Shown one piece after another: positions 38,830 to 43,748 of a stretch of 43,748 nt of DNA. Below the pieces are notes generated by a model. The model ran no database searches, was not told the DNA's origin, and saw only the letters and a program-made list of their open reading frames with translations. The DNA comes from an uncultured archaeon (GTDB lineage: Archaea; Thermoplasmatota; Penumbrarchaeia; JASLWR01), in assembly GCA_964342815.1 (NCBI GenBank), contig CAYFHS010000038.1:1-43748 (forward strand), given 5' to 3'. Each line of letters starts with the position of its first letter. The first letter of the stretch is position 1. The position numbers and the translations under genes are program-made.

Positions 38830-39972
38830 ATGAGTTTGATGGCAAAGGAACTCTTAAAAATGGTAAAAAAGCAATCCAAAGATACTGCAAATACTCCGGC
38901 ATCCAAACCGCAGAAGACTGCAGAAGCGCAACCGATCTCCACTGATGACGAGGAGATCAAGGATATATTTCTGCGAACGAGACCCACAATCAAGATCATC
39001 GGATGTGGCGGAGCAGGATGCAATACAATAACTCGATGTGTTGAAGAAGGCATCGTAGGAGCAGATATGTATGCGATCAACACAGATGCGCAGCATTTAT
39101 TGACGGTACACGCTCCCACAAAGATGTTGATAGGAAGGAGACAGACAAAGGGACTCGGTGCAGGTTCCAATCCCAATGTGGGAGAGGGAGCAGCAAAGGA
39201 AAACGAAGAGGAGATCCGCAATTCTCTATCTGGAGCGGATATGGTATTCATCACGGCAGGTATGGGGGGTGGGACCGGGACTGGTTCTTCTCCCGCAACC
39301 GCCCGGATATCCAAGTTCTTAGGGGCCCTAACTCTTGCAATCGTTACCACACCATTCCCAGGAGAAGGAGTGGTCCGAATGCAGAATGCGATCTGGGGCA
39401 TAAATCGGTTGAAAGAAGAAGCCGACACTGTCATTGTAGTTCCCAACTCCAAGCTATTGGAAGTTGTACCGAGGCTGCCTCTAAACGCGGCTTTCAGGGT
39501 CGCAGACGAGGTACTTATGAACTCAATCAAAGGTATTACGGAGATGGTAACCAAGGTCGGTCTGGTCAACCTGGACTTCAACGATCTCAAGACCGTCATG
39601 AAATCCGGCGGAACGGCGGTCATCGGCATGGGAACTGCCAGCGATTCTCCCAACAAGGCACGTGAAGCGGTCAACGACGCACTGAACTCCCCAATGCTTG
39701 ACATTGATGTGACCGAAGCGAACGGCGCTCTGGTATGCGTTTTCGGGGGACGGGATATGACTGTGAAGGAGGCCGAGAACGTCGCAGGCGAGATCCATGA
39801 CAGGATCGGTGAGAACGCCACTATCATCTGGGGTGCATATATCGACGAACGGCTGGAAAATAAGTTAAAGGTAATGCTCGTGCTCACCGGTGTGAAACTG
39901 AAACACAGTGATCTCACGGGTGGGGTCGCCTCCGTAAGCGGAGGAGGACTTGGTTTGGACTTCATCAAGTAA
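38830..39972 (+). CDS. ftsZ: Cell division protein FtsZ
   Basis: IIGCGGAGCN, AINTDAQHL, AGMGGGTGTG (tubulin signature), VPNSKL, VNLDFND, IIWGA. Confidence 0.97.
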   Translation: MSLMAKELLKMVKKQSKDTANTPASKPQKTAEAQPISTDDEEIKDIFLRTRPTIKIIGCGGAGCNTITRCVEEGIVGADMYAINTDAQHLLTVHAPTKMLIGRRQTKGLGAGSNPNVGEGAAKENEEEIRNSLSGADMVFITAGMGGGTGTGSSPATARISKFLGALTLAIVTTPFPGEGVVRMQNAIWGINRLKEEADTVIVVPNSKLLEVVPRLPLNAAFRVADEVLMNSIKGITEMVTKVGLVNLDFNDLKTVMKSGGTAVIGMGTASDSPNKAREAVNDALNSPMLDIDVTEANGALVCVFGGRDMTVKEAENVAGEIHDRIGENATIIWGAYIDERLENKLKVMLVLTGVKLKHSDLTGGVASVSGGGLGLDFIK

Positions 39973-40004: not shown

Positions 40005-40045
40005 AAGGACCTGGACGGATTGAACGCCGGGTCCTTTTTTTTTTT
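40005..40045 (+). terminator. Hairpin + T11 tract downstream of ftsZ
   Basis: AAGGACCTGG / CCGGGTCCTT stem (one G-U pair) followed by the T run at 40035-40045. Confidence 0.7.
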
Positions 40046-41945
40046 AAAAATCATCATCCTCGTGCCAGGCTTTAGTCTTTCCCTTTTGGCTGATGTAATC
40101 GAAACCGGTGTACTTCAGATCAATGACATTTTCTTCGCCGACGTTTACTCCCCGATACCTGTTTCTTTCGATGGTATCCTCAAGTTCCATAATTTCGGCT
40201 CTGTAATATTCATGTTCGAAGTAATCGGGCAGTTCCTTGGCCATGGCAATGAATTTCAAGGCCTCGTCGTAATTCCCCTGTTCCATGTGAAGATTGCTGT
40301 ATCTTATATAGATATCTATCTTCCCAGGTGTGTACTTCCCGGTTTCTTCCGGAATAAAAAAGTCCGTAACTGCGTTGTATTCCGAGGAATACCGTCCGCT
40401 TCCCGCCTGGTTGGGAGAACTCTCTTCCGCCGAATACATACCGCCACTCTCGGTTGCTTCCCTGGTTTCGAGAGAGGTCCCGCCAGTCTCATCCCTTTCC
40501 ATCGGTCTGATGTAATAAGCTCCGGGAGTTCCCCCGGGCCCGTCGTAGTTCGTTACATGGGCAAGAGCGCTGGTGGCAGGGATATCTCCAGGGGCCGCAG
40601 GATTTACAGGAACTGTTTCCATTATCTGTTGGGGAACCGATCTTGTCTCTGTTGACGGGAGCGTTACATTTATTTTTTCCCCCGAAACATGAGAGACCTG
40701 CACAGTCTCCACCGTAGGTATTTGAACGGATTGAGGATTTGTATACTGATTAACCGGTGAAGTCACACCTGCGGGCTGCGATGCCGCATTTACGTATTCC
40801 GATGGACGGTCCGATGCTTGTGTCACGCCTGCAGAATCCTGTGGGCCGGATGAAGATTTCACCTTCTGGCTATGTGGTCCATTGTCTAACGGGAGAAGAG
40901 TTGTCTGAATAATTCCATCGGGCCGTTGGAACGGAGGATTTTCTTCCATACCCGCTTCGGCAGGTATTCTGTCCACCGCAGCCCGGGGTGAAGGTTCGTC
41001 ATGAGGTATTTTTATCAACAGGTTTGAAATGATGTTGGATACATCCTCGAGATCTACTGTAACCCGGTTATCCTGAGTGCTTTCTCTTTTAATGAATTTC
41101 TTCTTCGATATCTCCAACTCATCATCGATTCTCTCGAGTATCAGATTCAAACTGGGAAGTATCTCCTTTATAAAACGTTCCGCCGATTCATATCCCCCTT
41201 CATCCAGGCAATTACGAAAACGCACGAGCAGGCCCGCAAATAGGTCCATGAAACCAAGTTCCGTATCTTTAAAGGAATTATCCCGGATATTCATGCAGAA
41301 TCCAGAGATAATGCATGATTTACAATCGGGATTGGATTTGCGACATATCTTTCGGCCATGAGATATCATGTTTACATGGAGCGAATAACGCAGCTTTTTG
41401 GGAAACATATCCGAAAGCCTAATTTGTGCTTTCTTGTGGTCAAGATTGGCGTCAATCAATCCGAGTCTCTTGCATATCCTGCGTACATGGGTGTCTGCCG
41501 GAAAAACTGCTTTTTTGAAAGAATACATCATTACACAATAGGCACTCTTGGGTCCAATGCCTTTCAGCGATGTGAGATATTCAAACACTTTTGGAGCTCC
41601 CCACCGGTATAATCGGTCAAGTGAATATTTTTTGAATCGTTTTTTGATTGTATCGAGATTATATTTTATCTGTTTTAATCTCAGATTTCCGAGCCCGGCA
41701 CTATTAATTATTCTGAATATGTCCCGATCTGATGCTTTGGCTACATCTTCCCAAGTGGGATATTCAGCCCTCAACTCATCGTAGACGGTTTCATATCCAC
41801 TTCTCCTTGTTCTTCTGGATAACAATATGAAGAATAATTCATCCAAAGGATCATCCTTGTTATTATGATCTGGAGAACCATATTCAAAATTAAGCAAGTC
41901 ATCGATTTCCTGAATATATTCTAAGACGAATGATTTGTGATTCAT
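40044..41945 (-). CDS. Chimeric ORF: Nth-like HhH-GPD glycosylase with 4Fe-4S motif (aa 1-~220), C5-MTase motif I remnant (aa 231-238), then an unrelated helical / Pro-Ser-Thr-Gln-rich / TPR-like region
   Basis: DPLDELFFILLSRRT, LTSLKGIGPKSA (HhH with Lys), FPADTHV (Asp), CRKSNPDCKSCIISGFC (Cx6Cx2Cx5C), then GFMDLFAG followed by LLVRF instead of xGG. Confidence 0.75.
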   Translation of the reverse strand: MNHKSFVLEYIQEIDDLLNFEYGSPDHNNKDDPLDELFFILLSRRTRRSGYETVYDELRAEYPTWEDVAKASDRDIFRIINSAGLGNLRLKQIKYNLDTIKKRFKKYSLDRLYRWGAPKVFEYLTSLKGIGPKSAYCVMMYSFKKAVFPADTHVRRICKRLGLIDANLDHKKAQIRLSDMFPKKLRYSLHVNMISHGRKICRKSNPDCKSCIISGFCMNIRDNSFKDTELGFMDLFAGLLVRFRNCLDEGGYESAERFIKEILPSLNLILERIDDELEISKKKFIKRESTQDNRVTVDLEDVSNIISNLLIKIPHDEPSPRAAVDRIPAEAGMEENPPFQRPDGIIQTTLLPLDNGPHSQKVKSSSGPQDSAGVTQASDRPSEYVNAASQPAGVTSPVNQYTNPQSVQIPTVETVQVSHVSGEKINVTLPSTETRSVPQQIMETVPVNPAAPGDIPATSALAHVTNYDGPGGTPGAYYIRPMERDETGGTSLETREATESGGMYSAEESSPNQAGSGRYSSEYNAVTDFFIPEETGKYTPGKIDIYIRYSNLHMEQGNYDEALKFIAMAKELPDYFEHEYYRAEIMELEDTIERNRYRGVNVGEENVIDLKYTGFDYISQKGKTKAWHEDDDF

Positions 41946-42081
41946 CGGATATTCTCCAGATACATTGTGAGAAATGGGAATAGCTGGGGGATGGATTAAT
42001 GTTACTTATTATTAACATATTTTGTTCTAAAAACACGAATATTGTTCCTTCTTTAAACACAGAAAAAAAAATGCAACGAGA

Positions 42082-42095
42082 AGTTTCATGAAACT
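42082..42095. promoter_or_regulatory. Perfect 14-bp palindrome AGTTTCATGAAACT (candidate operator)
   Basis: Lies in the divergent spacer between the Nth-like gene and the wHTH cluster. Confidence 0.45.
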
Positions 42096-42201
42096 GGGCA
42101 AGGGATTTTAGAGAGATGAAAGGGGAAGAGTGCAAAGGGATTTTCGAAGATAACATGATCAAGTGAAAGGTTTATTACAGTGTTCAATAATAGGCTTCAC
42201 G

Positions 42202-42633: not shown

Positions 42634-43748
42634 ATGGTATCAGATGAACTTTACAACGAAAACAGATGTGCCATATTCAACTACGTCATTGAAAATCCAG
42701 GCAACCATTTCGGTGCATTGGTAAGAACTCTGGACATACCCAAACAAACCGTCTTGTACCACTTAAAGCAATTGGTGAAGGAGGAATTGATTGTTTCAAA
42801 ACCCCATAAGAGACATAAATTTTACTATCCCGCAGGAACGACGGATTTCTTACTGCCCCTTACACCTGTTAGACAGAGAATCATAGATATTCTCTCAAAA
42901 AAACCTAGTAGCAGCAAGGAGATAGCTGAGTCACTCGGAATGGCTAATGGCGGAATCGATTATCAATTGAAAAAACTCGTGATAATGGGTGTCTTGAAAG
43001 AAGTGGAAAGAGATAATCAATCATTTTGGTATAGTGTGAACGAGGAGAGTGAGGGACCCAGTGTCGATGATAGTGAGTTGATGTATAAGGGGATTGAATG
43101 GAAGAAGGCATTGAATGGCCTCGATGTCAAGCACCAAGAAATCATATTCGGCTTGATTAAATGGCGTAAAAGAATTTCAAAAGGAATAACGAAAGCACAT
43201 AAAGAGGGGAATTTCAAGGCGTGGGGACGACCACCGGTGCCCTTTACAGACGAAGACATATACGATGTGTATTTACGGGAAGGTACGATAAGACAGACAA
43301 GATTGAAATTAGAATACACGACGAAATCAGGGAAGAAGAGATACGTGAGCCAGGGACGGATCGCAGAGGCGGTCAAACGCTGTCGTGAACAAGAAAATGG
43401 AAGTGTAGTAAAAAAATCCTCAATCCGGATGAATAATCAGAAGGTCCAAAAAAAGAATCAATGGGAGAACGCCAAGCGAAACAGGGCAAGGCTGTTAAGC
43501 TTCATCACTAATAATCCGGGGATACATTGCCGAGAAATTGGCCGCCGGCTCAAGTTATCTATCCGTCAGATGAGAAATGCTATACTTAGTCTTGAAAACG
43601 AGAATAAAGTATTCTCCGAACATAATGGACGTCATAAAAGATACTTCCCCATATCCATGAAGGAAAAATGGAAACCCATGTCAATAAATGCTAAGATGCG
43701 AGAGACTGCGGATATCATCAAAAAGAATCCTGGAATTTCCAGCCAAGA
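42634..43748 (+). CDS. Multi-HTH protein: two COG3398-like double-wHTH units flanking a resolvase-arm/HTH-like module; 3'-partial, not in ORF track
   Basis: Hand translation, open from ATG 42634 to the edge (371 codons): NRCAIFNYVIENPGNHF...YHLKQL...KFYYPAG; RQRIIDILSKKPSSSKEIAESLG; RISKGITKAHKEG...WGRPP; NRARLLSFITNNPGIHCREIGRRL...KRYFP; ETADIIKKNPGISSQ. Confidence 0.75.
   Translation, partial: MVSDELYNENRCAIFNYVIENPGNHFGALVRTLDIPKQTVLYHLKQLVKEELIVSKPHKRHKFYYPAGTTDFLLPLTPVRQRIIDILSKKPSSSKEIAESLGMANGGIDYQLKKLVIMGVLKEVERDNQSFWYSVNEESEGPSVDDSELMYKGIEWKKALNGLDVKHQEIIFGLIKWRKRISKGITKAHKEGNFKAWGRPPVPFTDEDIYDVYLREGTIRQTRLKLEYTTKSGKKRYVSQGRIAEAVKRCREQENGSVVKKSSIRMNNQKVQKKNQWENAKRNRARLLSFITNNPGIHCREIGRRLKLSIRQMRNAILSLENENKVFSEHNGRHKRYFPISMKEKWKPMSINAKMRETADIIKKNPGISSQ

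Follow-up and report, generated by a model that had tools for sequence, protein, structure and literature searches.

An ftsZ-neighbour gene of an uncultured Thermoplasmatota archaeon, probably fused recently and in frame to the glycosylase stump of a defence-type methyltransferase

Introduction

How does one archaeal open reading frame come to begin as a DNA glycosylase, to run into the first residues of a C5-cytosine methyltransferase and to continue as a protein of an entirely different kind? The question is raised by a 633-residue gene near one end of contig CAYFHS010000038.1 (assembly GCA_964342815.1) from an uncultured marine archaeon of the Thermoplasmatota (Penumbrarchaeia, JASLWR01); the window mentioned throughout is the whole stretch of 43,748 nucleotides that was analysed. 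A preliminary description of this DNA had proposed that a glycosylase-methyltransferase fusion was cut inside methyltransferase motif I and joined in frame to an unrelated protein. The analysis presented here indicates that the gene is almost certainly chimeric in origin, and the explanation that we favour with good confidence is a recent illegitimate recombination that left the host-derived moiety working. Both parental states are visible, as an intact family of fusions and as a 94%-identical unfused allele, a situation that is rarely caught for natural fusions. A domain search would label the product "endonuclease III", though two thirds of it are an unrelated lineage-specific protein.

Results

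Two ancestries within a single reading frame

The anatomy given in the preliminary description proved correct in all its coordinates and motifs. An Nth-like domain with a helix-hairpin-helix Lys, a GPD Asp and a Cys loop (41345-41295) is followed by a linker of 13 residues (218-230) and then by GFMDLFAG (41255-41232), the start of methyltransferase motif I. The motif is incomplete, since FMDLFAG is all that is left of it and the [AP]GGxSLGFE that follows in intact fusions gives way here to LLVRFRNC from the host protein. Neither PF00145 nor the later methyltransferase motifs (IV PC, VI ENV, VIII and the target recognition region) were found in the chimeric protein. What follows instead had been described as some 395 residues of helical, P/S/T/Q-rich sequence resembling tetratricopeptide repeats (TPR), and Pfam and AlphaFold2 agree with this view: a long helix (residues 239-287) leads into a disordered P/S/T/Q-rich region of about 250 residues and a TPR-like helical domain (541-598), and an acidic tail terminates in WHEDDDF. 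In the AlphaFold2 model, built on an 18-row alignment, the predicted local distance difference test score (pLDDT) is about 90 for residues 1-222 and about 80 for the helical-repeat domain, residues 280-540 or so are disordered, and residues 232-287 are modelled as one continuous helix spanning the junction (pLDDT 55-67). The two parts differ in guanine-plus-cytosine (GC) content in the direction noticed earlier, the glycosylase part having 38.8% and the distal part 48.0%. Against a genome average of 45.3% (standard deviation 4.7 over windows of 714 nt), the glycosylase part ranks among the lowest 9%.

A homology search that covered 5.8 billion proteins divided the protein cleanly, in the way that had been expected earlier for its two halves. 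Residues 1-238 retrieved fusions of PF00730 and PF00145, and the distal half retrieved stand-alone host proteins with another N-terminus. The chimera has no match in PHROGs.

A glycosylase-methyltransferase fusion as the first parent

Residues 1-238 match about 30 metagenomic proteins of approximately 600 residues that carry PF00730 and PF00145 in one chain, with identities of 44-66%. The BLASTP alignment with one of these fusions, P0006, is gapless over residues 1-238 at 66% identity and stops at DLFAG. All 13 aligned fusions share a linker of the same length followed by F-x-DLF[AS]G-[AP]GGxSLGFE, and for this reason the DLFAG remnant must be regarded as standing in register and not as a chance resemblance. 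When the glycosylase domains were placed in a quick maximum-likelihood tree, the window domain fell into a clade supported at 97 by the Shimodaira-Hasegawa-like approximate likelihood ratio test (SH-aLRT), the other six members of which are all fusions; this clade is nested in one of support 95 formed by 20 fusions and one frameshifted fusion. Stand-alone glycosylases are at most 47% identical to the window domain. These data bear out the suggestion that the parent was a single-chain glycosylase and C5-methyltransferase. A second apparent truncation at motif I, P0045 (244 residues ending in DLFSELEV, 57% identity; L045:132-1960), was rejected, as the methylase continues there in the next frame; its contig has 1.19x coverage and many short open reading frames, and the split after DLFS most likely results from sequencing-error frameshifts.

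In the loci retrieved, the fusion gene is followed by genes for HATPase_c_3, Z1, DUF4420 and AIPR proteins, which match MzaB, MzaC, MzaD and MzaE of PADLOC with E-values of 1e-25 to 1e-190. This gene set is the restriction-modification operon of MORC/paraMORC type, usually with a cytosine methylase and a Vsr nuclease, that Iyer, Abhiman and Aravind described in 2008 (PMC2292703); it is also related to the systems of Z1, PD-(D/E)xK and C5-methylase and to mzaABCDE, which are mentioned in PMC9523054. Judged by these matches, the parental fusion is not new and belongs, as the methylase, to a defence cassette of known type. The earlier view of it as an interesting epigenetic or defence unit is to be corrected in this respect. 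A literature search found no published description of a glycosylase::C5-methylase fusion, which is not proof of absence. By analogy with the Dcm-Vsr and Mig/M.MthTI precedents, the glycosylase most likely serves in these fusions to remove the T opposite G that arises when 5-methylcytosine (5mC) made by its own methylase is deaminated.

A close fusion relative, P0007 (L036:314-8786), lies in another setting, without the ATPase/Z1/DUF4420/AIPR cassette and divergent from genes for a 1380-residue DEAD-like protein and a PLD-family nuclease; the partners of the fusion methylase thus include restriction modules of other kinds. As to the source of the window copy, searches of species-representative genomes gave only bacterial matches of 32-38% identity to the N-terminal domain (Isosphaeraceae, Tundrisphaera, Polyangiaceae), and consequently no donor can be named. 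The sole organism label among the names of the fusion cluster is that of a metagenome-assembled genome, "Deltaproteobacteria bacterium".

An ftsZ-neighbour host protein as the second parent

Residues 234-633 match stand-alone proteins of 348-447 residues with identities of 50-72%. BLASTP alignments with two of them, P0003 and P0004, begin at residue 234; the sequence of the host proteins at this point is D-E-I-Y-A-G-LLVRFRNC. The closest is P0040, an unfused protein of 411 residues from a sister population, which is 90% identical to the host part of the window gene at the protein level and 94% at the nucleotide level, and whose native N-terminus reads ...EEKNIRSAADEIYAG-LLVRF...; nucleotide identity to the same-genus genome G001 is 81%. 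The stand-alone orthologues have a native N-terminus of the form EEKNIxSAxDEIYAG, and the chimera is devoid of EEKNIxSAxDEIY and of the start codon that precedes it. Residues 239-633 are colinear with P0040, P0003, P0041 and P0005 over the helix, the disordered region and the TPR-like domain, and they belong to this family. In four relatives besides the sister strain, the stand-alone gene is convergent with ftsZ and beside the rpl3-rpl4-rpl23 ribosomal operon. Among 40 related genomes the stand-alone family was found in the same genus and in one genome of the same family only. One copy, P0041, bears the label "hypothetical protein, Candidatus Thermoplasmatota archaeon", and the hints of function for the host part are weak TPR matches in Pfam and the PDB, AlphaFold2 being confident within this part for residues 541-598 only.

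The relatives thus carry the unfused gene, and the alternative that the preliminary description had set against its own proposal, namely full-length homologues in relatives with DLFAG as a coincidence, was not encountered. The same comparison speaks to the order of events. That the fused form is ancestral, with the stand-alone genes produced by fission or loss of the glycosylase, is conceivable in a formal sense only and has a next to negligible probability: orthologues in the sister strain, the genus, the family and a more distant relative share the native N-terminus that the chimera lacks, the closest relatives of the N-terminal domain are all joined to methyltransferases, and the GC content of the glycosylase part is atypical.

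The ratio of nonsynonymous to synonymous substitution rates (dN/dS) between the host part and the unfused sister allele is 0.29, with 0.03 for the C-terminal domain, and unfused orthologues compared among themselves give 0.23-0.31. The C-terminal domain (40044-40322) also stands out in its synonymous divergence from the sister locus L021, which is 0.32 compared with 0.08-0.09 over the remaining host-derived sequence, while hardly any amino acids differ; this divergence may reflect allelic recombination and a mosaic gene.

The junction at nucleotide resolution

In BLASTN comparisons with the window, the homology of every unfused allele starts at 41242. The chimera reads ATG GAC CTA TTT GCG GGC CTG CTC across the junction (ATG at 41249-47, GGC at 41234-32), and the unfused allele GCG GAC GAG ATA TAT GCG GGC CTG CTC. 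Left of 41238 the chimera tracks the methylase parent and from 41231 on it tracks the host, with the seven nucleotides T-GCG-GGC common to both, since motif I has F-A-G here, the host protein has Y-A-G, and the two are encoded alike in this stretch. The end of the fusion-side alignment and the start of the host-side alignment share the same five residues. The crossover had been placed at 41231/41232, a boundary that turns out to be the right-hand edge of the microhomology (41238-41232). Such an arrangement is what microhomology-mediated illegitimate recombination leaves behind, and the join very probably arose in that way. The lost D-E-I-Y-A-G is imitated in part by D-L-F-A-G, and the host protein is short of its first 22 or so residues only. 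An internal start at M233 (ATG 41249-41247), which would give a near-native host protein, was considered and dismissed for want of support: a TTTAAAG lies 24 nt upstream, a poor spacing for an archaeal TATA box.

Table 1. Features of the chimeric locus, in window coordinates
Feature	Position	Strand	Basis and remarks
Chimeric gene P0001	40044..41945	-	Single open frame, 633 residues
Glycosylase-derived part, residues 1-238	41232..41945	-	HhH-GPD/[4Fe-4S] domain at residues 1-217, linker, FMDLFAG
[4Fe-4S] loop Cx6Cx2Cx5C (C201, C208, C211, C217)	41295..41345	-	Conserved in fusions, aligned to Deinococcus radiodurans endonuclease III-1
Crossover microhomology T-GCG-GGC (last base of F236, A237, G238)	41232..41238	-	DNA alignment with unfused L021 and L022
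Host-derived part, residues 239-633	40044..41231	-	Homology to unfused alleles; sole copy in the genome
AT-rich 5' region of the chimera (34.6% GC), GGAG 9 nt ahead of ATG	41946..42162	-	Sequence and GC content
ftsZ	38830..39972	+	Tubulin/FtsZ_C Pfam; convergent neighbour; same gene order in L013-L019 and L024
Divergent winged helix-turn-helix (wHTH) regulators: 78 or 65 residues (start-dependent), 65 residues, and 416-residue multi-wHTH protein running off the contig end	42163..43748	+	Pfam HTH_HVO_0163_N, HTH_24, MarR_2

Reality of the join

The identical 633-residue protein is present on at least four contigs from independent assemblies, among them a 45.8-kb SPAdes contig (14x) and one that MEGAHIT (k127) built from a Tara Oceans run, and a one-residue variant occurs on a third contig (9x) that differs by two single-nucleotide polymorphisms in 13.7 kb. 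Altogether, the junction recurs in at least three sample accessions and with two assemblers. Seven shared bases cannot mislead an assembler working at k = 55-127. The possibility that assembly or binning has put together two unrelated molecules might draw on the position of the foreign part, which lies less than 2.5 kb from the contig end, and on several related contigs that break just upstream of the gene. We consider it very improbable in view of the same junction in SPAdes NODE contigs (9-14x) and MEGAHIT, a homology far under any assembler k-mer, a join that is in frame and in the same orientation, and an assembly that nowhere contains the host gene's native 5' end. The misassembly that the preliminary description had named as a way to overturn its reading is thus not upheld by the independent assemblies.

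The content of the genome, which is 88.9% complete, was examined for the missing pieces, a search that had also been suggested before and that recovered neither a methyltransferase body nor the native 5' end of the host gene. PF00145 C5-methylase and Z1 were not found in it. AIPR was not found either, a weak negative given that the AIPR control search was positive in no control genome. Both the native start of the host gene and the DNA upstream of it (L021:447-895) are missing throughout the assembly, and the host part is single-copy in the genome. The 633-residue architecture was seen solely in copies that are at least 99.98% identical, and no independent recurrence of it was found in the protein searches.

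Properties of the glycosylase domain

Pfam HhH-GPD (PF00730) matches residues 42-182 with 39.4 bits (gathering cut-off 26.2), and the NCBIfam nth and DR2438-like models match residues 16-217 below their equivalog cut-offs (TIGR01083, 81 bits against 211.7; NF053634, 116.7 bits against 400), so that orthology to neither Nth nor DR2438 is indicated. On these scores, the domain is a member of the HhH-GPD superfamily and not an Nth equivalog. The best PDB match is 4unf, with an E-value of 1e-30. K133, in the hairpin GIGPKSA, aligns with the Lys of GVGVKTA in 4unf and 8a5c and is invariant in the fusions; D151, in PADTH, aligns with the Asp of D. radiodurans endonuclease III-1 (EndoIII-1) and is invariant in 13 fusions; and the four Cys of the cluster loop (C201-x6-C208-x2-C211-x5-C217) are all present and aligned with those of EndoIII-1 and the fusions. 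The presence of K133 places the domain in the bifunctional subclass of glycosylases with apurinic/apyrimidinic lyase activity, and such an activity is predicted for it. Foldseek superimposes the N-terminal domain on EndoIII structures with template-modelling scores (TMt) of 0.74-0.82 over 208-229 aligned columns, and the domain is structurally whole as modelled. It has probably retained the binding of DNA and may also cut bases; the chances that it is catalytically active appear about even. The genome encodes two further HhH-GPD glycosylases.

A variable island upstream of the host gene

In the window, ftsZ and the host gene directly follow the glycosylase part of the chimera, with no cassette genes downstream. 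On its other side, the wHTH genes, which form part of the variable island, have many paralogues in this genome and in its relatives and give generic HTH matches only in PHROGs. They were considered as part of the foreign cassette and rejected, being a large lineage-typical paralogue family with no similarity to the flanks of the cassette loci. Recognisably foreign DNA therefore appears, from sequence comparison, to be confined to about 41232-42160. No tRNA was found upstream of the chimera in a search for tRNA and att-like signals.

The sister upstream DNA (L021:1-446) maps with 90% identity to contig C5 of the window's genome, where it is followed by genes for a 615-residue membrane protein, an 853-residue Kelch protein and YbjQ, and then by the contig end. 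One more distant relative has the Kelch gene immediately beside the host gene, in divergent orientation, and the contigs of several relatives end 140-290 nt upstream of the host gene. The Kelch adjacency, the mapping to C5 and the contig breaks together identify the space between the Kelch gene and the host gene as a variable island. The sister strain has a rearrangement of its own there (L021:1-881 compared with G000:C5:146259-152512; also L025 and L038): homology to C5 ends in the 3' part of the 615-residue gene, leaving an open reading frame of 103 residues, and the rest of that gene, the 853-residue Kelch gene and YbjQ are missing between this frame and the host gene. Both strains have thus been remodelled in the same island.

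Further observations concern the neighbourhood and the contig ends. The 416-residue protein (42634-43748, continuing at L013:1675-2925, minus strand) contains at least four winged-helix modules (HTH_HVO_0163_N, HTH_24, MarR_2 and RPA_C-like) and is one of 17 family matches in the genome, with many in relatives as well. A stretch of 55 nt located 3.5 kb upstream of the chimera, past the end of the window (L013:65-119), recurs unchanged at the ends of two further contigs (G000:C34:46756-46810; G000:C18:1-54); it is a branch point of the assembly graph or else a short repeat in the island. On C5, the first 31 bases recur with a 54-nt period (G000:C5:1-355; positions 1, 55, 109 and 325) and at the end of C39 (39667-39775), a tandem 54-nt repeat at contig ends. 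A second FtsZ paralogue (G000:C10:32881-33945) is 56% identical to the FtsZ of the window, which corresponds to the usual archaeal FtsZ1/FtsZ2 pair.

Discussion

Origin and present state of the chimera

The sequence of events that best accounts for this locus would begin with an EndoIII-type glycosylase::C5-methyltransferase gene located in the island upstream of the ftsZ-neighbour host gene, a gene that elsewhere would act as the self-marking and self-repairing first member of an Mza-like defence cassette. A deletion, or an illegitimate join in one step, at the 7-nt microhomology T GCG GGC would then have taken out the whole stretch that begins inside motif I, behind FxDLFAG, and reaches roughly codon 22 of the host gene. 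With it would have gone the body of the methylase, whatever cassette genes lay downstream, and the promoter, start codon and EEKNIxSAxDEIY residues of the host gene. The join being in frame, the sole copy of the host gene would now be read from the start and upstream signals of the glycosylase gene, with an N-terminal addition of 238 residues; the expression signals at 41946-42162 are presumed to derive from that gene. It is fairly likely that the host moiety is still functional, and an in-frame survivor would be seen because this moiety keeps working. The glycosylase would have become an orphan: with no C5-methyltransferase found in the genome, its original task of removing T from T:G pairs at the sites of its own methylase, in place of Vsr, would be gone.

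A neutral relic is the alternative that needs the closest consideration. According to it, the cassette decayed, the deletion fell in frame by chance, and neither half matters. The event is indeed very young, as judged from fused copies that are at least 99.98% identical, the partner methylase and the cassette are gone, two other HhH-GPD glycosylases are available in the genome, the host protein belongs to a lineage-restricted family that one genome of the same taxonomic family was not found to encode, and an in-frame join is expected once in three events. Against this count an intact frame of 1.9 kb, the kept synteny of the host gene and the purifying selection on it in relatives, with a dN/dS of 0.03 between chimera and sister for the C-terminal domain, the status of the chimera as the only copy of the host gene, and the presence of the fused allele in several samples. 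On balance we hold the relic to be unlikely, and prefer a recent recombination with a host part that still works.

Several points nevertheless weigh against this preference. The in-frame join could be one-in-three luck. The dN/dS values mostly reflect the time before fusion, and the near-identical fused copies cannot measure selection since then. The genome is only 88.9% complete, and the methyltransferase or the cassette could sit in unassembled DNA. The residence of a full cassette in this lineage is an inferred step only. Finally, with the closest methylase relative being just 66% identical, the right-hand limit of the microhomology is itself inferred, and the confidence of AlphaFold2 for the junction helix reaches just 55-67.

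A more ambitious alternative is that the chimera has acquired a new function, in which the glycosylase or its DNA-binding surface brings the host protein to DNA, or in which the glycosylase gains a new location or partner through the host part. A complete glycosylase fold with its catalytic Lys and Asp, a long flexible tether leading to a TPR-like interaction domain, and the position of the gene next to ftsZ would suit such a role. Yet the copies are near-identical and leave no time for adaptation, the architecture has not recurred independently, and the host protein family is without an assigned function, so that we rate this alternative as decidedly improbable. Slightly less probable still is a newly born working protein in which the orphan glycosylase, on a tether of about 250 residues, couples the sensing of lesions or methyl marks to another process, or acts on foreign 5mC-containing DNA in the manner of ROS1. 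Under the preferred explanation, the case shows how a host gene can receive a folded enzymatic domain, along with promoter and start codon, from a defence cassette in decay, and the chimera offers a concrete substrate for asking if such stumps stay active. The chimera is new; its parental kinds are known, and its mechanism is ordinary and involves no new system.

Comparison with known systems

Compared with the stand-alone ftsZ-neighbour proteins (P0040, P0003, P0004/P0041 and P0005), which are 50-90% identical to residues 239-633 and occupy the same genomic position, the chimera has had its native first 22 or so residues and its promoter replaced by a glycosylase stump of 238 residues. Compared with the cassette fusions, it has the same N-terminal part, linker and F-x-DLFAG but has lost all that comes after the Gly of DLFAG, namely the body of the methylase and the four cassette genes behind it. 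The cassettes themselves (MORC ATPase/Z1/DUF4420/AIPR) are Mza-like and, as operons, kin to the systems of PMC9523054; in their fusions the glycosylase domain occupies the place that Vsr has in the usual MORC operon.

The closest solved relative of the glycosylase domain is D. radiodurans EndoIII-1 (DR2438; 4UNF/8A5C), with about 30% identity over 204-216 residues, an aligned helix-hairpin-helix Lys, Asp and four Cys, and a fold similarity (TMt) of about 0.75. EndoIII-1 differs in serving the general repair of oxidative damage, whereas the evolutionary setting of the window domain is that of a methylase partner. In this respect the parent resembles Mig.MthI/M.MthTI of the Methanothermobacter plasmid pFV1, where T:G repair is likewise encoded together with a C5-methyltransferase. 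The Mig.MthI structure 1KEA matches the window domain with E-values of 1e-9 by sequence and 7e-7 by fold. Mig carries a Tyr at the site of the Schiff-base Lys of the window protein. It is also encoded by a separate gene, unlike the fused parent, and the methyltransferase partner of the chimera is gone from the window. The very-short-patch repair of Dcm-Vsr has the same T:G repair logic as the parent, although Vsr has an unrelated nuclease fold. Plant ROS1/DEMETER (PDB 7YHO-7YHQ), finally, are HhH-GPD/[4Fe-4S] enzymes that act on 5mC and T:G and likewise carry a catalytic Lys. They match the window domain with an E-value of 1e-16, better than E. coli Nth, a likeness at the family level only. 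ROS1 has large insertions and extra domains, and 5mC excision is an activity of ROS1/DEMETER and not one indicated for the window domain.

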